DNA from: a virus | Taxonomy: Duplodnaviria > Caudoviricetes | Virus record (IMG/VR): IMGVR_UViG_3300033075_000716 | Location: 3,935 to 67,934 of that record | Length of the DNA: 64,000 bases | Direction: 5' to 3' (one strand) | Shown: positions 3,844-59,966 of the stretch, one piece after another | Numbering within the stretch: position 1 is the first letter of the stretch | How the letters are laid out: every line of letters starts with the position of its first letter | Program-made: the position numbers and the translations under genes | The notes under the pieces: generated by a model | What the model was told of the DNA's origin: nothing | The model's database searches: none | Seen by the model: the letters and a program-made list of their open reading frames with translations, nothing else

Positions 3844-3971
3844 GCAAGAAATCACGCGGGCGAAAGCGTCCCAGTCGCAAAACGATCAAATCGCGTTGTG
3901 AACGGGATCGCGAGCAATCGACGGCATGGCAGACGCGCAACCACTTGAGGCCGAAGCGGAAACACAAGTAG
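3840..3971 (+). CDS. small, highly basic peptide
   Basis: ATGA overlap with the previous stop; MSKKSRGRKRPSRKTIKSR... (43 aa). Confidence 0.3.
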   Translation: MSKKSRGRKRPSRKTIKSRCERDREQSTAWQTRNHLRPKRKHK

Positions 3972-25847: not shown

Positions 25848-27796
25848 GGGACGTTCTCGCGGAGTATGAGCCGCTTCTTGCCGCGACCATCAGCGACGCC
25901 CTCCTGGCCGGATGGCTCTACGCTGGGCAGCAACTTGCCGAGCGGCCGGAACTGGAAGACGAATTGCCGGAAGAGGACGAAGGCGAGTTATTTCCGTCCA
26001 AGCAATTCGCGGATGACGGACCGCCCGACGACGACGATCCTCCTACCCTTCAACTGCCGGACCCCGACGAAGATTCTCCCATCGAGTTCCCGTTGCTTCA
26101 AGAGGCGGCCGACTCGCTCGCTACGAAGCGTGTCGTCACGCAGGACGAGTTCAACGAAATCAGCGACCGATTGCGCGAACAGGCGTTTTCCATCGCGTCC
26201 GTGGCGAACCTGGACGCCCTGGAGAAGCTACAGACGGCGTTGACCGACGATATTCGCGACGGCGGCACGTTGGAAGAATTCGCGGATCGCGTGGAGGAAG
26301 TTCTTGGAACGTCGGCACTCGCGCCGCACCATATCGAGAACGTCTACCGCACGAACATTGCCGCGGCGATTGGCGAAGCGGAACAAACGATTCTGGATAA
26401 CGAATACGTCAACTCGGCATTTCCTTACGTCGAGGTTGTCGTCACGCATGACGGTCGGACGCGGAAGAGTCACAAGTATTTCGAGACGGGGGGGATTGAT
26501 GGGACAGCGATTTACAGGAGCGATGATCCAGTTATTCGCAAGTTCTGGCCAGGTTCATGGGACTACCAGTGTTTACCTAGAGACGCAGTAGTGAGAACAT
26601 CTACTGGTCCAAAAGACATTTGTAAAATCAAGACAGGGGATTTGGTTTTAACTCACAAGGGAAGACTTCGCCCGGTTCTTGGCTCTCACACGTCCAAAGG
26701 GCCATCGGAAATTGTATCCTTGCACTTCGATGACGGTTCCGTTTGTTCGTTGACTGATAACCATCGTGTTCTTTCCGAGAACGGTTGGGTCGAATCTGGA
26801 CGCCTTAATGTCGGCGACGAGGTTTTCAAGTATTCCAATTCGACCACGGCGGATATGGTAGCCGCAAAAGTAGATGATGGTTTTAAGCCCGGCGTCTCGG
26901 CAAATGAAATCGTGTCGATCTTCGCACGGGCGGGCATTGATCTTTTGGATTTCCAGGCCAATTTCCAATTCGGGAAGATAAAAGTCGAGCCAAAACGGCG
27001 CGACATTGTGATTAAAGGAATACTGAACACCAATGCCGTCAAGGCTGGCGGCAACTATGGTTTCATACTTGGACATCTTGGCGACAAAATTTGGATGCTT
27101 TTCGGGTTGAATGAACTGGTTTCTCTTTTGGGTGTCCGACATTTTCTTTCTGACATCAGGCGTGCGACAATGGGCATGCATAGTGTCTATCATGGCCTGT
27201 CTGACTTCCGGAGTCCTATTAGCCATGTGTGCTCGATTAGCCTCTCTGATCTTCTCTGCACGATCCGGATGAGTTGCGTAATGGGCGGCATTCGCTTCCC
27301 CGCCGCTTCTCATCACGATGCCATTGGCGGCGAATATCCGCATGGCGGCGCGATATTGGATGTTCGCCCGTCTGCAAATTTCAGACAAACTGGCTTTTCC
27401 GGACCTGTACTCAGCGAAAGCGGCATCTATGCCGCCGGGCCAAGAATCGAACTTAGCGATAGCTTTTTTGGAATATGTCGCGGATCGATTTGGTTGTTTT
27501 CTCATACCTACAATTGTACCAGCACGACCAAGAAAGTAAAAGCCAAGAAGAGACTGCCATGGGGCGGCCAGGATGTTTTCAATCTGTCTGTCCTTGATGA
27601 CGAGAGTTTCATTGCCAACGATACCGTCGTCCACAACTGCCGCTGCGGTTCGATCATGTTGACCCGCGAAGACGCCGCGAAAAAAGGCTTGCGCGAAGCT
27701 CAAGAATGGGTACGAACAGGCACGCCGCCCCCTTACACCTACGTCGAACATCCTCCTTTTGAACCGTGGGAGAGGCCGCCGCCGGAGTGGCGTTGA
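25844..27796 (+). CDS. MuF / SPP1 gp7-like head morphogenesis protein precursor containing an intein
   Basis: HIENVYRTNIAAA and HDGRTRKSH motifs; the conserved ...YQ-CRC motif is split by an intein. Confidence 0.85.
   Translation: MRDVLAEYEPLLAATISDALLAGWLYAGQQLAERPELEDELPEEDEGELFPSKQFADDGPPDDDDPPTLQLPDPDEDSPIEFPLLQEAADSLATKRVVTQDEFNEISDRLREQAFSIASVANLDALEKLQTALTDDIRDGGTLEEFADRVEEVLGTSALAPHHIENVYRTNIAAAIGEAEQTILDNEYVNSAFPYVEVVVTHDGRTRKSHKYFETGGIDGTAIYRSDDPVIRKFWPGSWDYQCLPRDAVVRTSTGPKDICKIKTGDLVLTHKGRLRPVLGSHTSKGPSEIVSLHFDDGSVCSLTDNHRVLSENGWVESGRLNVGDEVFKYSNSTTADMVAAKVDDGFKPGVSANEIVSIFARAGIDLLDFQANFQFGKIKVEPKRRDIVIKGILNTNAVKAGGNYGFILGHLGDKIWMLFGLNELVSLLGVRHFLSDIRRATMGMHSVYHGLSDFRSPISHVCSISLSDLLCTIRMSCVMGGIRFPAASHHDAIGGEYPHGGAILDVRPSANFRQTGFSGPVLSESGIYAAGPRIELSDSFFGICRGSIWLFSHTYNCTSTTKKVKAKKRLPWGGQDVFNLSVLDDESFIANDTVVHNCRCGSIMLTREDAAKKGLREAQEWVRTGTPPPYTYVEHPPFEPWERPPPEWR
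26648..27505 (-). CDS. PD-(D/E)xK (DUF559/Vsr-like) endonuclease encoded antisense inside the intein
   Basis: 285-aa ORF from ATG 27505. Basic helical N-terminus (VRKKMSDTQK), then SKYETIVAASL...YSFNHNVAPFWLDFYLPELEIGLEI. Confidence 0.8.
   Translation of the reverse strand: MRKQPNRSATYSKKAIAKFDSWPGGIDAAFAEYRSGKASLSEICRRANIQYRAAMRIFAANGIVMRSGGEANAAHYATHPDRAEKIREANRAHMANRTPEVRQAMIDTMHAHCRTPDVRKKMSDTQKRNQFIQPEKHPNFVAKMSKYETIVAASLDGIGVQYSFNHNVAPFWLDFYLPELEIGLEIQKINARPCEDRHDFICRDAGLKTIIYFCGYHIRRGRIGILENLVADIKASRFDPTVLGKNTMVISQRTNGTVIEVQGYNFRWPFGRVRAKNRAKSSLVS
27513..27540 (-). promoter_or_regulatory. candidate sigma70-type promoter for the antisense endonuclease (leaderless)
   Basis: Minus strand TTTACT-16 nt-TACAAT with an extended TG; the -10 ends 7 nt before ATG 27505. 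Confidence 0.55.
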
Positions 27797-27908
27797 CGCG
27801 AAAGGCAATGCACGAAAGCAAAGTTTGCATTTTCTGCGATTTGCTTTAACCGATTGGCATTTGGTACGGTTGCGCCCTGAAATAAGAACAGGGGGCGAGG
27901 GCGCGAGC

Positions 27909-28400
27909 GTGCAATCGAAAACAGACAAAGACGCGATCAAGGCGGCAATCACGGAACGGGCAAAAGAACTGGTCGGCGAAGCGATGCGCGAATTGACCCA
28001 AGAGGCAGGGTATCCGCTCGCTCGCCTGGCTGAGTTCGCGAACGCCGCCCGCGTGGGGCAACTATTGACTCACGTTCTCGCCACGGCGCGGACATTGTTC
28101 GTTTCCCAAGACGCGGACGATGAGGACGGCAAAGAGAGCGTGAGCATTGCATCCAGGCCGGTGGACGGGGCCGCAAGCAATGTGACGCGGGAGACGATCC
28201 TTGGGGCGTTGGAAGCGATTTGCGGAAAGCAGAGAAAGAAATCATGCCCGCGATGCAACGGCGGGCTAGGTAAACGCCGGCCGTTGAGCGAGTTCCCGGT
28301 GAACATGACGCGAGACGATGGACGCGGCAAATACTGCAAAACATGCGAGCGGAAGCGGAAGCAGGAATACGACGAGAAGAAAAAAAATGCCGCAACCTAA
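27909..28400 (+). CDS. protein with C-terminal Zn finger
   Basis: CPRC...PLSEF...DGRGKYCKTC motif; GTG start. Confidence 0.6.
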   Translation: MQSKTDKDAIKAAITERAKELVGEAMRELTQEAGYPLARLAEFANAARVGQLLTHVLATARTLFVSQDADDEDGKESVSIASRPVDGAASNVTRETILGALEAICGKQRKKSCPRCNGGLGKRRPLSEFPVNMTRDDGRGKYCKTCERKRKQEYDEKKKNAAT

Positions 28401-28722
28401 GCAGATGATCCAATTCGACAACCTTGACGACAGGCGAGAGCTTCACCGTCTCTTGCTGCGATTGCCTCCGCGCCGCAAGCTGGAATTCCTTCGCTGGGCC
28501 TGCCAACAAGCGAGCTTGACGCCTGGATGCACCACGAAGCCGCAACCGGGCCATGAGACGGTTGAACTTGCCCGGCGTGCGATGCAGAGGCCGGGCGATG
28601 AGACGTTGAATGAGCGGTTGTCGCTGGAGATTTTCTACGACGTTTTTGCTTTGGCGTCGCAGTGGGAGTTCAGTTTGGATGCGGCGGCGCGGGAGTTGGA
28701 GCGGTGGGGGAGAAAAGAATAA
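28387..28722 (+). CDS. hypothetical protein
   Basis: 111-aa helical ORF overlapping the previous stop. Confidence 0.55.
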   Translation: MPQPKQMIQFDNLDDRRELHRLLLRLPPRRKLEFLRWACQQASLTPGCTTKPQPGHETVELARRAMQRPGDETLNERLSLEIFYDVFALASQWEFSLDAAARELERWGRKE

Positions 28723-28745
28723 TCCGCCCCAAAATGAGGCGGATT
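28721..28745. terminator. hairpin between convergent transcription units
   Basis: Stem AATCCGCC / GGCGGATT, followed on the minus strand by ATTCTTTT. Confidence 0.6.
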
Positions 28746-28834
28746 ATCCATGCCGAGCCGATCCTTGGTCTACCGCACCAACCCTTAGCTTACCGTGCCG
28801 CGCCTTGGCCAACCGTACCTAGCCCAGCCCCGCC
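28745..28834 (-). ncRNA. GGY-NN pentamer array C (putative guide RNA)
   Basis: 18 in-phase 5-nt units, 12 starting with GGC or GGT: GGCGG GGCTG GGCTA GGTAC GGTTG GCCAA GGCGC GGCAC GGTAA GCTAA GGGTT GGTGC GGTAG ACCAA GGATC GGCTC GGCAT GGATA. Confidence 0.8.
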
Positions 28835-28841
28835 GATTTCA

Positions 28842-29285
28842 TCACTTCCGCGCTGGCAACATCGTCCGCGTCGGAATTGGTTCAAGATCTCGCGATGCCT
28901 GATGCAACGCAAGCCGCAAACGAGATTGGCTTATCAACCGCCGCGTGTGCTCTTTCCGTGCCTCCGTGGACAACTGCCCAACGTCAACGGCGTCAAGCAG
29001 CCGGCCAGCCTTGCGAATGCTCCGCTTGGCGCGCCGAGTCCGGTTTTCGTTGTGCGCCGACGCTTCCTCATGCGTCAGAATGTGGATTGATTCTTGCGGG
29101 GTCCGCAATGTCCATTCGTAGCCGATGGACTTCAACTCCCTTTCGATGTGAGTTTTCAGATTCAGAAGCAAGAGCCGGTATCGATCCGGGTCGTCCTTGA
29201 ACCGAACCCCCACGGCGTCCTCGCAATCCGATTGCTCAATAACGCAACCGGGATGCAAGTTTGAAACGTCGATGTCGAATTTCAT
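28842..29285 (-). CDS. accessory protein of the RAMP/pentamer-array locus
   Basis: RBS GAGGA; 147 aa; flanked by arrays B and C; helical C-terminus. Confidence 0.75.
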   Translation of the reverse strand: MKFDIDVSNLHPGCVIEQSDCEDAVGVRFKDDPDRYRLLLLNLKTHIERELKSIGYEWTLRTPQESIHILTHEEASAHNENRTRRAKRSIRKAGRLLDAVDVGQLSTEARKEHTRRLISQSRLRLALHQASRDLEPIPTRTMLPARK

Positions 29286-29305
29286 GAGATTCCTCTTTGT
29301 GAAAA

Positions 29306-29395
29306 ATTCCTTGCCATGCCGCGTCCGACCATGCCATGCCTTACCATCCCGGCCACATCGCGCCTCGCCAGGCCCGGCCTACGCCAGGCCAAGCC
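29306..29395 (-). ncRNA. GGY-NN pentamer array B (putative guide RNA)
   Basis: 18 units, 14 GGY: GGCTT GGCCT GGCGT(A) GGCCG GGCCT GGCGA GGCGC GATGT GGCCG GGAT GGTAA GGCAT GGCAT GGTCG GACGC GGCAT GGCAA GGAAT. Two 1-nt phase slips. Confidence 0.8.
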
Positions 29396-29961
29396 TACGC
29401 CGCCTCAAATCTCCCGAATCTCGGCCGGAAGTCGCACAGCCCACACTTCAAACCCGCGTCCTTGATCGCGAGCATGACTTCCGATTCGTTCACCTGCTCA
29501 TCATCGTAGGTCATGGAAATATCACAAGACCATTGATGAAAAATCGGCCGCGTCCGCATCACGCGAGCTTGGCCGATCCGCACCCCGCGCGTATCACGGT
29601 ATTGCTCTTGCTTCCAAAGGTCCGTTGCCTTTTCGTACTTGGCCCCGATGTTCAACACCGCATCTTCCGACACGAAAACGGAACTCTTGAACGTCTTGCC
29701 GAGTTTCGATTTCTTCGCGCCGTCCAAGATCGACGCTTCGATGACTTCGGCGGGGATAATCAGCTTGCCGTCCGTGTTTGTGTACAGTCCCGCGTGCCAC
29801 TCGATTTCCGACATGGCCGCATAATCCTCGTCGGTCTTTTTCCGCTTCCCGCTGATCGCCTTCATCTGTCGGGAAAACTTGTTTGTCGGATCGGCGGTTT
29901 GCCCGTTGTGCATAAGCAACGGCGAAACGCCCGTGATCGAAACCGTCAGATTCTTAATCAT
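29395..29961 (-). CDS. stand-alone RAMP/Cas7-like protein (Vipr-like)
   Basis: First strand LTVSITGVSPLLMH, IIPAEVIEASI, thumb-like RDTRGVRIGQARVMRTRP, and C-terminal Gly-rich loop GLKCGLCDFRPRFGRFE. Confidence 0.75.
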   Translation of the reverse strand: MIKNLTVSITGVSPLLMHNGQTADPTNKFSRQMKAISGKRKKTDEDYAAMSEIEWHAGLYTNTDGKLIIPAEVIEASILDGAKKSKLGKTFKSSVFVSEDAVLNIGAKYEKATDLWKQEQYRDTRGVRIGQARVMRTRPIFHQWSCDISMTYDDEQVNESEVMLAIKDAGLKCGLCDFRPRFGRFEAA

Positions 29962-29982
29962 GCCTTACCCCTTGTGAAAAAG

Positions 29983-30037
29983 AAACCTCGCCAAGCCTCG
30001 TCATACCCAACCTCGCCCAGCCGAACCGCCCCACGCC
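29983..30037 (-). ncRNA. GGY-NN pentamer array A (putative guide RNA)
   Basis: 11 in-phase units, 9 GGY: GGCGT GGGGC GGTTC GGCTG GGCGA GGTTG GGTAT GACGA GGCTT GGCGA GGTTT. Confidence 0.8.
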
Positions 30038-30088
30038 GAGTTGGCTATCTATTTTTGTATAGGTTCTGTACAGACAAAACAAGAGGCA

Positions 30089-30116
30089 TTGAAAAATTAT
30101 TCTGTTTGCACATAAT
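30089..30116 (+). promoter_or_regulatory. candidate promoter for the RHH gene, in an AT-rich divergent region
   Basis: TTGAAA-16 nt-CATAAT ending 6 nt before ATG 30123 (leaderless). Confidence 0.5.
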
Positions 30117-30122
30117 GCAGAC

Positions 30123-30290
30123 ATGGCAAAGAAGAAACCCGGCGAAGGAAACGACCACTCTTTTTGTTTTCGTTGCCGCAAGAAAGACGTTGACGCCTTC
30201 AAGAAAGCCGCCGAGGCCGAAGGATTCGGCACGAACGTCTCCGCCTGGCTCCTATTCCATCTCCGCCGTATCGCCAAGAACGCAAAATAG
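30123..30290 (+). CDS. ribbon-helix-helix-type regulator (not in the supplied ORF track)
   Basis: 55 aa MAKKKPGEGNDHSFCFRCRKKDVDAFKKAAEAEGFGTNVSAWLLFHLRRIAKNAK: alternating beta strand, helix, G turn, VSAWL helix. Confidence 0.7.
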   Translation: MAKKKPGEGNDHSFCFRCRKKDVDAFKKAAEAEGFGTNVSAWLLFHLRRIAKNAK

Positions 30291-30313
30291 TTGCACGCCC
30301 TACCCTGGAACGC

Positions 30314-33300
30314 ATGTTCCGGGCAACATTCGGCGGCAAAACCTGTTACGGATCGGCGAACGAAGTGCAGCAATTGGAGGCCGAGGGGCTGCCAATTCCG
30401 CCCGACTTCTATCGCGCCACGTCCTTTTGGAATCCCCTTGGCCCGGCGGCGGGCAAGGGATGGCTCTTGATGCGACGGCGCGATATCGACGCGCTCGACC
30501 TGAACGCCCTGCACGATCTTCGATTCGAGCATGAGCCGGAAAGCGGCGCGAAGCAAGTCCGCATGTTCCGTTCGCTTGTCATCGCGTGCGAGCCGCGCAA
30601 CCTCTTTCCCGGATTCAAGCCAAACGACCCAGATTCGCTCTACCTTGTCGAAGTCGCCGACGTGCGGCACTTGCTCGACAACGATCAATTCACGTTTCCG
30701 ATCAACAAACAGTACAACGTCCGCGCCTACGCGCACCTGGGGGCAGGGGACGCCACGGAGTATCTTGCCGATTCGCTCAACAGCGGCACGCTCTGGACCT
30801 GGGCGACGATGATTGCCGACGTGTGGACTCTCATGGCCGCACGCCTAGGGGCCGCGCCGGCCCTTCCCGTCACTCCGCACGGCACGCCGGAGGGGTTTAT
30901 CTTCCAGGGGGGATCGGCTTGGCGGACGCTTAACGTCTTGCTCTCCCGGATCGGTTGCGCGATCTCCGCGGACTTGAGCCAGGTAGCCGGAAGCCAGTTT
31001 TCAATCGTTCAAGTCGGCGCGGCGGACGCGGCCACGGATGCGATCTTGTCTAGGTGGGAAACGTCAAAGGTCTACGATGCCGAGTGGGTAGACGTTATTC
31101 GTGGTGTGACGCCCTACGGCGTTCGCGTGTTCTTTCATCGACAGGAGCAATATCCAGGGCTTGAGCAGACGACACCTCGCACGGCATCGAACTGGCAAAC
31201 GGGATCGGCTTATTCCGTGGACGTTGCGGGGCCGGACGCCGCCAGCGCGGAACCTGGAACGTATCATCCGATTTGGGACGATCTTCCCGCGATTTATGAT
31301 TCAACCGGCACGCTGACGAATACCACCGCGTTGGGGCAGCGGGCGCAAGAGCGAGCCGACGATTTCTTTCGGCAGAATCGCGCGGAAGAACTGCACAAGA
31401 CCTATCCCGGTTTCATGCCGATCGCGCCTGGCAGCACGCTCCGCGCCGTCATGCACCGGGACGGCGTTGATGGCGCGACGACGGAAATCGTCCGGCATCC
31501 GTACCTTTACTTCCGCGCGGCGGGCATGACGTGGGAGCCATTGTCATGGATGGACTCGACGCGACTGCATGCGCCGGACCTTTCCCCGTCATGGCCAGCG
31601 CAGCAAGCCCAGCTTGTCAAGATTCTTGAGATAGAAAACGGCACGCCCGCAAGCAATCGATATGATTGCACGGTTCAACTTCGCGACTCCGCCGGCGGAT
31701 GGCTGGAGAAGGAAAGCGTCTACGCGGTTGACCTGGCTGGGGCCGCGAGTCTCACGGCGGGGGATCGATACGACGGCCTGCTTGTCGGATACGAAGGTAG
31801 TCGGCCTCTGTTCGCGATTGATAGTCGCGGAACGCCGGTGGAAGAGATTTGCACGGCCTATGAAGGCGAAGCTGACGACACGCTCGCCCTGACCAATGAC
31901 ACCTGGGCCGACATTCCAGGAACAGACGTTGAGCTTGTCATCACGGCCGAAGCCGAAGCCTTACTCATCGCGGTCTTCCAATTCGACGGCAACGGCACGG
32001 CGGCCGTCACGGTTGACGGGGCCGGCGCTGGATCGACGGACGTTTACGAGGGCCGTTTCGTCATAGACGGAACGCCCGTTGCGCCTCTCGCTAAATGCTC
32101 GATAACGCATCCTGTTGAGACAAAAACGATCCCGATGCCGCCGGTACTCGTCACGCTCGCGGTAGGGACTTACACAGTCAAGCAGCAGGCCCGCAAACTG
32201 AGCGGCAGCGGCGAAGCGATAACCGGACTCGAAACAGGATGGACGTTGACGGCGGCTTGCGGGGCCAAAGGCAATCAAGGAATCCAAGGCGAGACAGGAT
32301 CGACAGGGCCGCGCGGCAAACGCGGGTTCCCGATGCCAGCGATTCGCGTCGATGACAGCTACCATTTCGCCGTGCCATCTCGCCCGCCTGGGCAATCGGT
32401 CAAAGTCTTGACCGAAAAACTCAAGACGCTAATCAAGAAGCGAACCTATCTGCTACCGTCTCGTAGCGACGATTCTGTTTCTTTCGCCGCGCCATCGCGC
32501 CCGCCGGGGAAATCGGAACGGAAGATTATCAACGATCTGCGAACCTGGATCGACGTCACATGGAACGTCACGGGCGGAACGTGGAACGTCACAAACACGA
32601 CGATCAATTACACCACGGTCGCGCATAATTGGACCAGCGTAACATGGGTCGTTGACGGTGGAACATGGGACATAACCAACGTCACAATAGATTGGGATAC
32701 AGTCGTCTGGAATGTGGTCGATGCGACGTTCAATATCGAGACGACGGAGATCAACTGGACAACAAACATTTGGGTTGTTGACGGCGGGACGTGGACGATA
32801 ACAGACACCACGATTGACCTCATCACGCTGACGCAAAATTGGACCACGGTGGTTTGGGTTGTCGACGGCGGAACGTGGGACATAACAGATACCGTCATCG
32901 ACTACACCGACGTTACGGTGAACATCGGCGGCAATTCGCTCTGGATTTGGGCGGCAAACACCGCCAACTATTTCCAGGGGAAAAGCTACTTCTCCGGCCC
33001 GGTGGTGTGGGTGCATCCCGTCCAAACGAATTGGGTTTCAAACGTCTGCCCAATCAACAACACCTTCGCAAAAACGGTAAGCGGCACAACATCGATCACG
33101 AGCGACACGTTGACCGACCTGACCGGATCGTCGTCCACGTTCTCGATGGCCACAAGTGCCGATGTCCATATCACCGCGATCTTCGATTTCAACGGGGACG
33201 GCGCGGCCACGGTTGCGGACCAGTTCGAGGGGCACCTAATCGTCGACACCGTGGATCAATCGGGCGTGGCGACGTTCGGCGTATGCCATGCATCGCACCG

Positions 33301-51513: not shown

Positions 51514-52046
51514 AGATCGAGGAAATCTACGCGATTGCGCCGGATGCGAACGGCTGGAGGACGATGCCGAGCGGGAATCGGATCAAGTTGGGCGACTACG
51601 TCATTATCGGCGACTACGTCATTATCGGCAACTACGTCCGCATTGCCAGCGGGGTCCGCATCGGCGACTACGTCATTATCGGCAACTACGTCCGCATCGC
51701 CAGCGGGGTCCGCATCGCCAGCGGCGTCAGCATCGCCAGCGGCGTCAGCATCGCCAGCGGCGTCAGCATCGCCAGCGGCGTCAGCATCGCCAGCGGCGTG
51801 ACGCTAACGAAATCTCCTCTCCAGATCCATGGGCCGGAATTTATCGTCTACCCGCACGCTGCTGGAATTATCGGCGTGGGCTGCACGATTCTGTCTTTGG
51901 AAGAATGGTGTGAAAAAGGCGAGGCGTTGGCGAAAGCGAACGACGTTGATTTTGAAAAATACCGCCCGCTAGTCGAAATGGTCGCGGCGTGGATGGGATC
52001 TGACGAGGAGTGGATCGAAGGGACGAAGGGGAACGACGCGAAATAG
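51510..52046 (+). CDS. hexapeptide-repeat (left-handed beta-helix) protein
   Basis: IGDYVI / IGNYVR / IASGVS repeats encoded by 18-bp tandem repeats at about 51590-51800. Confidence 0.8.
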   Translation: MKIEEIYAIAPDANGWRTMPSGNRIKLGDYVIIGDYVIIGNYVRIASGVRIGDYVIIGNYVRIASGVRIASGVSIASGVSIASGVSIASGVSIASGVTLTKSPLQIHGPEFIVYPHAAGIIGVGCTILSLEEWCEKGEALAKANDVDFEKYRPLVEMVAAWMGSDEEWIEGTKGNDAK

Positions 52047-58980: not shown

Positions 58981-59966
58981 AAGCTCCCTTCCCCTGGTTC
59001 GGAGGCAAGCGCCGCGCGGCCCCGATTGCCTGGCAGCGATTCGGCGACGTGAAAAACTACATAGAACCCTTCTTTGGATCGGGAGCCGTTTTGCTTGAGC
59101 GCAAGACTCCGTTCGATGGCGTCGAAACCGTGAACGATCTTGACGGCCTGGTTGCGAATTTTTGGCGGGCCGTCGCCGCGAACCCGGACGCGGTTGCCGA
59201 TCATGCTGATTGGCCGGTGAACGAAAACGACCTGCACGCGAGGCATGCCTGGCTCGTCGGGCAAAAAGACGCGATTCAATCCAGGCTTGAAGGGGATGCG
59301 GATTTCTTTGACGCAAAAGTCGCTGGCTGGTGGGTGTGGGGCATGGCGTGCTGGATCGGGAGCGGATTTTGTTCGGGACACGGCCCTTGGCAGGTCATCG
59401 AAAAGGACGGCACCAGGCAACTCGTCCACCTTGGCGACGCGGGGCGAGGGGTGAATAGGCAACGCGTCCACCTTGGCGACGCGGGGCGAGGGGTGAATAG
59501 GAAACGCGACAATCACCGGGAATGCCTTTTCGATTACATGCGGGGGCTATCGGACAGGCTGAGGCATGTGCGCGTTTGCTGCGGTGATTGGTCGCGAATC
59601 ATGGGTGAGACGCCAACCGAGACTTTCACTCCGTGCGGTGTCTTTCTTGATCCGCCCTACGCGGACACGGCGAAGCGAGACAAGGATTTGTACCGCGTCG
59701 ATTGCCTCAAGGTCGCGCACGATGTTCGTGAATGGGCTATCGCGAACGGTGACAACAGGAACCTGAGGATATGCCTCGCTGGATACGAAGGAGAACACGT
59801 TATGCCGGAATCATGGGATTGCGTCGACGGCGTAGCTGGCGGTGGCAGCGGCTACGGGGGGCAATCGAAAGGTGGCTACAAGAACGCGAAGCGGGAACGT
59901 CTTTGGTTCTCCCCGCATTGCGTCCAAGTTGGCGGCGGGCTGTTTGATTTAGTGGAGGCGGAGTAA
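58977..59966 (+). CDS. DNA N6-adenine methyltransferase (D12/Dam class)
   Basis: PFPWFGGK, YIEPFFGSGA, NDLDG and FLDPPY; 42-bp internal tandem duplication at 59423-59501. Confidence 0.9.
   Translation: MKAPFPWFGGKRRAAPIAWQRFGDVKNYIEPFFGSGAVLLERKTPFDGVETVNDLDGLVANFWRAVAANPDAVADHADWPVNENDLHARHAWLVGQKDAIQSRLEGDADFFDAKVAGWWVWGMACWIGSGFCSGHGPWQVIEKDGTRQLVHLGDAGRGVNRQRVHLGDAGRGVNRKRDNHRECLFDYMRGLSDRLRHVRVCCGDWSRIMGETPTETFTPCGVFLDPPYADTAKRDKDLYRVDCLKVAHDVREWAIANGDNRNLRICLAGYEGEHVMPESWDCVDGVAGGGSGYGGQSKGGYKNAKRERLWFSPHCVQVGGGLFDLVEAE

Follow-up and report, generated by a model that had tools for sequence, protein, structure and literature searches.

A probable VIPR system of the Vipr-plus-Vap1 kind in a high-GC environmental phage

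A minus-strand operon in an environmental phage genome very probably encodes a VIPR (Viral Interference Programmable Repeat) system of the kind that pairs the protein Vipr with the accessory protein Vap1. The operon lies in a 64,000-nt stretch (the window; positions 3,935 to 67,934) of IMG/VR virus record IMGVR_UViG_3300033075_000716. VIPR was first published in April 2026. The discovery paper, a bioRxiv preprint (10.64898/2026.04.26.720920), describes a phage-borne minimal RAMP protein, Vipr; an accessory gene, vap; and vrRNAs made of 9-16 YNNGG units plus a tail. These vrRNAs recognise double-stranded DNA through NN pairing alone, skipping one target base per unit, and the outcome is silencing. 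The structural preprint (bioRxiv, 10.64898/2026.04.26.720927) identifies which residues hold G1, G2 and Y3 and which ones clamp DNA, and a third (bioRxiv, 10.64898/2026.10.15.759431) shows phage-satellite competition. The window locus is a further example of this published system, not a new kind of system. It is called type II-like here; membership of type II is not claimed.

The assignment draws on direct observations: homology; fold; residue conservation; array statistics; the association of arrays with the gene; and the absence of self-targets. All of the defining VIPR features that a sequence can reveal are present, except a structured tail and an identified target. An earlier, sequence-only reading of this DNA had proposed VIPR; the proposal is supported, both by the three preprints cited above and by the match of the 188-aa protein to Vipr of phage SUSP1.

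Vipr and its pentamer arrays

The 188-aa protein matches PDB entry 36pp_D, "SUSP1 Vipr protein", over residues 3-186 of 188 (phmmer, E=3e-38). Homologues about 40% identical occur in 131 GenBank phages, mostly Felixounavirus (tblastn). Among the PHROGs, phrog_4652 ("unknown function") is the single match (1e-60), and Pfam, NCBIfam and PADLOC return none.

SUSP1 residues were mapped onto window Vipr through an alignment with the orthologue from phage wV8. Residues H17, K33, R39, E71, M72, K82, G87, K88, R138, C173, D177, W178, and R179 of SUSP1 correspond, respectively, to H18, K34, R40, E72, V73, K83, G88, K89, R138, C173, D177, F178, and R179. The five residues at which alanine abolishes or reduces silencing (K33, R39, K82, R138, and D177; 10.64898/2026.04.26.720927) are all conserved, as are H17, G87, K88, C173, and R179. 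The set that reads GGY or contacts DNA (H17, K33, R39, K82, R138, D177, W178, and R179) is thus identical but for one aromatic swap, W178 to F. The family also conserves a carboxyl-terminal G-loop motif, G-x-x-D-[FWY]-R-P-x-[FY]-G-R-F.

For an AlphaFold2 model based on 91 members of the family (pLDDT 96.5), the best Foldseek matches in the PDB are Csm3, type VII Cas7, and Cmr4 (E 3.5e-6 to 2e-4, TM about 0.5). The predicted protein is a minimal RAMP, Csm3/Cas7-like, with an RRM core, a thumb and a glycine-rich loop. The RAMP/Cas7-like fold anticipated from the sequence is borne out by this model, with Csm3/Cas7 as the top match.

The minus-strand order is also as first read: AT-rich spacer, array A, 188-aa open reading frame (ORF), array B, 147-aa ORF, array C, and hairpin (positions 28400-30700 read, with the three intergenic stretches phased). 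Here an array is ascribed to VIPR when at least four tandem YNNGG/GGYNN units lie beside vipr on the same strand, with GGY conserved and NN variable; the window arrays have this form. Their 43 units, in three or four arrays, begin with GG in 37 cases and with GGY in 32, so that GGY, proposed as constant, holds as a consensus but not in every unit. Entropy at unit positions 1-5 rises through 0.16, 0.72, 1.45, 1.88, and 1.99 bits, leaving NN near-random. Three arrays of at least 8 GG units occur in the window, versus none in 40 first-order Markov surrogates; the rest of the window holds nothing comparable, its sole other row being a weak 7/10 at 22674-22625. The count of three arrays stands; array B proves to be two register blocks rather than one clean array.

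The disorder in array B has a visible source. Tandem Repeats Finder (TRF) detects a 16-nt tandem duplication at 29362-29401 (2.6 copies, plus-strand consensus GCCTACGCCAGGCCAA) that overlaps the vipr stop codon and array B1. Because 16 nt is three units plus one nucleotide, the duplication breaks the pentamer register, shifting it by +1 until a 4-nt unit restores it. B1 is probably a decayed vrRNA array; by analogy with the middle region of L123 (the closest relative among the fetched loci, which carry L numbers), it is seen as a vrRNA that lost its tail. Array C possibly comprises two guides.

In VIPR an invariant structured tail follows each repeat tract; the 3' ends in the window give a mixed picture. 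Arrays A and B2 are followed by a T-run and CACAA(A)G; C ends at the terminator hairpin; and B1 is tail-less. Array A shows no excess of structure over shuffled sequence (z 0.74), and tails A and B, which hold the Shine-Dalgarno bases of the next gene, are likewise unstructured (z 0.33 and 0.20). No pseudoknot tail was seen after array A, B, or C. Processing and capping may therefore differ from those in SUSP1, with its pseudoknot. The motif of the window tails, GGWTT-(C)TTTTT-CAMAAG, also ends the arrays of L123, where internal vrRNAs finish in TTTTACAAGCCACAT and the last array finishes at a terminator, as in the window. Other relatives (L009, L120, and L122) have tail hairpins with GCGAATAGGT-type loops at internal positions, which the window lacks.

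Two further kinds of array end were encountered among the relatives. In L009 (1450-1545) and L010 (1445-1545), relatives 70% identical, a tRNA-like 3' element, GTGGGTTCGATCCCCACCCGATTCA, follows the last vrRNA array. ARAGORN calls no tRNA in it; the element could serve the vrRNA as a tRNA-like cap or as a processing signal. In a more distant VIPR locus (L002:3628-4460, and L003), back-to-back arrays each end in GGTCA-YTGTC-GGNGG and overlap the next by one base, resembling the "staggered arrays" of the discovery paper (10.64898/2026.04.26.720920).

Arrays accompany the gene far beyond this phage. The Vipr family comprises 1,093 clusters by word search and, in metagenomes, 2,957 representatives at 50% identity (E<=1e-3). 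With a scanner threshold of at least 6 GG-phased pentamers, same-strand arrays lie beside the homologue in 6/6 loci first fetched (three distinct places). Same-strand GGNNN arrays were then counted in 27/28 IMG/VR loci, the exception ending 33 nt after the gene, and in 74/80 loci from GTDB bacterial and archaeal genomes. The flanking of homologues by arrays, put forward earlier as a check, is thereby confirmed. In the GTDB loci, 165 arrays are on the gene strand versus 14 on the opposite strand. The genomes span Planctomycetota, Bacteroidota, Actinomycetota, Pseudomonadota, Cyanobacteriota, and one Methanobacteriota metagenome-assembled genome (MAG).

In such loci the ORFs that gene callers assign to vipr and vap may run on upstream across the arrays, which creates spurious Gly/Arg/Trp-rich amino termini (L001:3001-3714; L122:3786-4325; JGI homologues P0030, P0033, P0040, and P0088). 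JGI also misnames some Vipr homologues "copper chaperone CopZ".

Table 1. Features of the candidate VIPR operon and its divergent neighbour (window coordinates)
Feature	Position	Strand	Basis
Divergent 55-aa ORF, candidate ribbon-helix-helix regulator of the operon	30123-30290	+	ORF list
AT-rich spacer upstream of array A, presumed operon promoter	30038-30122	-	Sequence reading
vrRNA array A, 11 GGYNN units (10 GG, 9 GGY)	29983-30037	-	Pentamer phasing
Tail A, 21 nt, CTTTTTCACAAGGGGTAAGGC, U-rich, includes vipr ribosome-binding site	29962-29982	-	Sequence; motif also in L123
vipr, 188-aa Vipr protein (predicted minimal RAMP)	29395-29961	-	PDB, PHROGs, Foldseek, residue conservation
Array B overall, two register blocks (B1, B2)	29306-29401	-	Pentamer phasing
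Array B1, short, slipped, ends GGCGAGG, no recognisable tail	29346-29401	-	Phasing; TRF; comparison with L123 middle region
vrRNA array B2, 8 units (7 GG)	29306-29345	-	Pentamer phasing
Tail B, TTTTCACAAAGAGGAATCTC, U-rich, includes vap ribosome-binding site	29286-29305	-	Sequence
vap, 147-aa accessory protein, putative divergent Vap1	28842-29285	-	Relatives and profile search
vrRNA array C, 18 units (15 GG, 12 GGY)	28745-28834	-	Pentamer phasing
Intrinsic terminator, 15-bp hairpin and U-run, ends operon and caps array C	28707-28749	-	-23 kcal/mol, z -6.6

The accessory gene and its surroundings

The 147-aa protein has no family match in Pfam, NCBIfam, PADLOC, or PHROGs; a word-based search returns the protein itself alone; and in the ESM Atlas it falls only among viral hypothetical clusters. 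Its kin emerge beside vipr. The adjoining ORF in the nearest relatives (L120, L122, and L123) is 41-46% identical, and an array-flanked 153-aa ORF of L004 is 31% identical. A profile of four sequences yields 97 homologues. BLASTP against vap1 of wV8 finds nothing, so this link required profiles. A profile of 57 family members, run against 1,128 ORFs from all fetched loci, reaches vap1 of wV8 (SUSP1 family) at E=0.0015; a second-round profile from which wV8 vap1 was left out scores it at 5.7e-18, and recovers as well the ORFs directly 3' of vipr in Pseudomonas juntendi and Pseudomonas sp. An hhalign comparison is colinear over 114 columns. On these grounds we read the 147-aa protein as a divergent Vap1.

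Its AlphaFold2 model (pLDDT 88) has a small amino-terminal alpha/beta part and a long helical hairpin. Foldseek returns no match to the model at E<=0.001; winged-helix regulators (MarR, GntR, and ScpB) are over-represented among its weak rows (E about 1). VIA-align matches the carboxyl-terminal helical hairpin alone (Z <=6.5).

The operon promoter is assigned to the AT-rich spacer presumptively, since a consensus scan found no minus-strand sigma-70 match in 30038-30122. The same scan detected a promoter-like TTGAAA-16-CATAAT at 30089-30116, just upstream of the divergent 55-aa ORF. That ORF has no matches in Pfam, PHROGs, NCBIfam, or PADLOC; in the ESM Atlas an RHH_1 cluster appears at rank 14 (score 0.91), which is a lead only. 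L123 carries a ribbon-helix-helix-like 76-aa ORF in the same divergent position, unrelated in sequence to the 55-aa ORF. (The 76-aa ORF, at L123:1894-2124 and L124:30-260, both minus strand, has a clear ribbon-helix-helix-like pattern, and no BLASTP similarity to its window counterpart.) Loci of the window's subclade may repeatedly come with a small divergent regulator. The divergent gene of the sequence-only reading does exist, but its ribbon-helix-helix label depends on weak leads.

The operon itself contains no nuclease gene, as first stated, but the neighbourhood is less clear-cut. A convergent 213-aa ORF (27759-28400, plus strand) has a carboxyl-terminal CxxC...CxxC zinc ribbon and weakly matches Lar-like, endonuclease VII, and HNH PHROGs (8.9e-7 to 5e-3); it shows no sign of a tie to VIPR.

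The source record is a 67.9-kb IMG/VR virus contig of 76% estimated completeness and 54-60% GC, and the context of the operon includes MuF and portal-type neighbours and an intein. Neither Cas1, Cas2, nor CRISPR-like repeats occur in the record, in agreement with the initial description, and no Rfam family or ribozyme (Rfam) was found in it. Hence the arrays are not interspersed with hammerheads. The locus stands apart from class 1 CRISPR-Cas, with which it has the fold alone in common: the record has no repeat-spacer array and no adaptation or other cas genes.

Elsewhere in the window, an 18-nt (hexapeptide) repeat occurs ten times within a coding region (51573-51806), and a 42-nt tandem duplication, perfect to 98%, occupies 59415-59498. 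Hexapeptide repeats are typical of left-handed beta-helix proteins, for example a tail fibre or an acyltransferase-like protein.

The closest genome match (70% identity) lies on a 1.8-kb contig binned in a Pirellula MAG. The match is a weak pointer to the host, which is possibly a Planctomycetota bacterium. In a quick maximum-likelihood tree, window Vipr groups with L122, L120, L123, L001, L037, and L009 (SH-aLRT 94), and loci that bear Vap1 cluster strongly (6 changes versus 33 in shuffles).

Proposed action, targets and alternatives

We infer the following course of transcription, processing, ribonucleoprotein assembly, and DNA silencing. Transcription would probably start from the AT-rich spacer and stop at the hairpin. 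Its products would be Vipr, Vap1, and the vrRNAs of A, B2, C, and perhaps the decayed B1 (three or four in all). Judging from the homologous SUSP1 system, one Vipr protomer would bind each 5-nt unit, sequestering GGY through H18, R138, D177, F178, and R179 and leaving the NN dinucleotides exposed. The NN positions of the filament would then pair with double-stranded DNA reading NNxNNx..., one base being skipped per unit; the target DNA would be held as an R-loop triplex; and transcription would be blocked without cutting. It is probable that Vap1 boosts the effect by interacting with DNA. Likely targets are phages, satellites, or prophages that compete in the same host. The sequence-only reading had proposed much the same: one protomer per 5-nt unit, GGY held, NN presented, and nuclease-free silencing of competitors. 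That proposal coincides with the published VIPR mechanism, and the putative GGY-reading residues are kept in window Vipr.

A natural target of a VIPR guide would lie in a competing element, match at least 80% of the NN positions with a 1-nt skip, and be absent from the genome of the phage itself. With the 1-nt skip, no guide matches its own phage genome above a shuffled-guide null, which agrees with the natural systems of the discovery paper (10.64898/2026.04.26.720920). No guide target occurs in 576 kb of VIPR loci from relatives. Public collections were scanned with exact patterns or with up to 3 mismatches. Exact scans of IMG/VR with A(1-11), A(1-9), C(1-12), and C(1-10) gave nothing, and a search of 401 Planctomycetota genomes for guide C, with 3 mismatches allowed, found no match. 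Two matches were set aside as chance. One, to C(9-18), is in a single 28%-GC phage of IMG/VR (two samples) and was rejected because the other 8 units match at chance level (4/16); the other, to A(1-10), is in one ORF-poor 40%-GC metagenome contig, and was rejected because about one such match is expected by chance.

Several points weigh against the assignment to a Vipr-plus-Vap1 VIPR system. Array B1 is out of register, and tails A and B are short, unstructured, and unlike the SUSP1 pseudoknot tail. The natural target was not found in the own phage, the 576 kb of relatives' loci, the exact IMG/VR patterns, the 401 Planctomycetota genomes, or the one metagenome scan. In the tree, the node joining the window clade to the wV8/Pseudomonas clade is weak and the deep nodes are left unresolved; the type II call rests on Vap1 and on the form of the arrays.

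The position of tails A and B, which end 0-20 nt before an ATG and include Shine-Dalgarno bases, brings up another role for the arrays. For arrays A and B2 the main function might be cis-acting: by binding to its own 5' leader, Vipr would autoregulate translation or attenuate transcription at the U-run, and trans guidance by A and B2 would be secondary or absent. The repetition of the layout (array, U-run, ribosome-binding site, and ATG) in L123, L122, L120, and L009 speaks for this idea. It is nonetheless rather improbable: the upstream vrRNA1 of SUSP1 is a trans-acting guide (10.64898/2026.04.26.720920), and NN is as variable in A and B2 as in C. A cis role is, moreover, compatible with guide function.

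A related proposal, for which our expectation is similarly low, concerns the tails. In the window's subclade, the tail and the next gene's ribosome-binding site are fused (array, U-run, CACAAG, Shine-Dalgarno, and ATG), so that Vipr loading on A and B2 could directly throttle translation of vipr and vap, or cause their termination at the U-run. If true, the fusion would provide built-in feedback between guide maturation and effector dosage, which is not described for SUSP1-type systems.

It is very unlikely that the phage passively carries a VIPR remnant that is decaying and does not function. The slipped and tail-less B1, the 11 units of 43 that deviate from GGY, and the failure to find a target would fit such decay. 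Both ORFs are intact, however, with all of the tested functional residues conserved; arrays A, B2, and C are in register; vap is kept at 41-46% identity across relatives; the terminator is intact; and vrRNAs frequently show internal degeneracy (10.64898/2026.04.26.720920). Finally, the notion that the arrays are G-rich microsatellites, G-quadruplex tracts, or coding Gly/Trp-rich repeats unrelated to the neighbouring genes could appeal to the gene calls that run through them in relatives (237 aa in L001, 179 aa in L122), but is already contradicted by a period of 5, incompatible with a kept reading frame, by the strand bias relative to vipr (165 versus 14), by the presence of arrays beside vipr homologues in many phyla, and by the array-free surrogates.

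Relation to known systems

The locus resembles the type II VIPR systems of Escherichia phage SUSP1, its Felixounavirus relatives (for example wV8 gp096/gp095), and a Pseudomonas fulva prophage. Full-length identity of window Vipr is about 40%, and the residues that contact GGY and DNA are kept; GGYNN arrays on the gene strand lie both upstream and downstream; the accessory gene is of the putative Vap1 family; there is no nuclease; and the system is phage-borne. The differences are several. The space between vipr and vap also contains arrays (likewise in L004, L120, L122, and L123), whereas the wV8 genes are 2 nt apart. Where SUSP1 has a pseudoknot, the window has a plain terminator hairpin or a short U-rich tail whose CACAAG motif is fused to a ribosome-binding site. 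The candidate Vap1 is too divergent for BLASTP, the host is probably not a proteobacterium, and the quick tree places Vipr in another clade.

Closer likenesses are to uncharacterised metagenomic loci (L123, L120, L122, L001, L009/L010, and L037, the last in the Pirellula MAG), whose Vipr proteins are 70-72% identical and which have the vap subfamily in common. In these too, arrays abut start codons and the final array ends at a terminator; L123 adds the window's tail motif and a divergent ribbon-helix-helix-like gene. Unlike the window, L001 and L009/L010 place vap before vipr, and the NN strings are unrelated throughout.

With the Cas7 backbone of class 1 CRISPR (Csm3, Cmr4, and type VII Cas7), the Vipr model shares the RRM/RAMP fold, thumb, and G-loop. 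Cas7 and Vipr alike form oligomers on a guide RNA, with a fixed step (10.64898/2026.04.26.720920, 10.64898/2026.04.26.720927). In contrast to Cas7 systems, the window locus is carried by a phage and has no repeat-spacer array, Cas1/Cas2, or other cas gene. Its step is 5 nt, of which just 2 nt are read, and sequence identity is 10-16%.

VIPR systems, then, can be recognised from raw sequence. The association of arrays with vipr across many phyla and in one archaeal MAG supports the generality claimed by the discovery paper, and leaves the concept unchanged. With the window, VIPR gains a well-defined member that is remote from the enterobacterial and Pseudomonas models and comes from an environmental phage of high GC. 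The window also documents a subclade in which arrays are interleaved between vipr and vap, tails are minimal and unstructured, and the putative Vap1 lies beyond the reach of BLAST.

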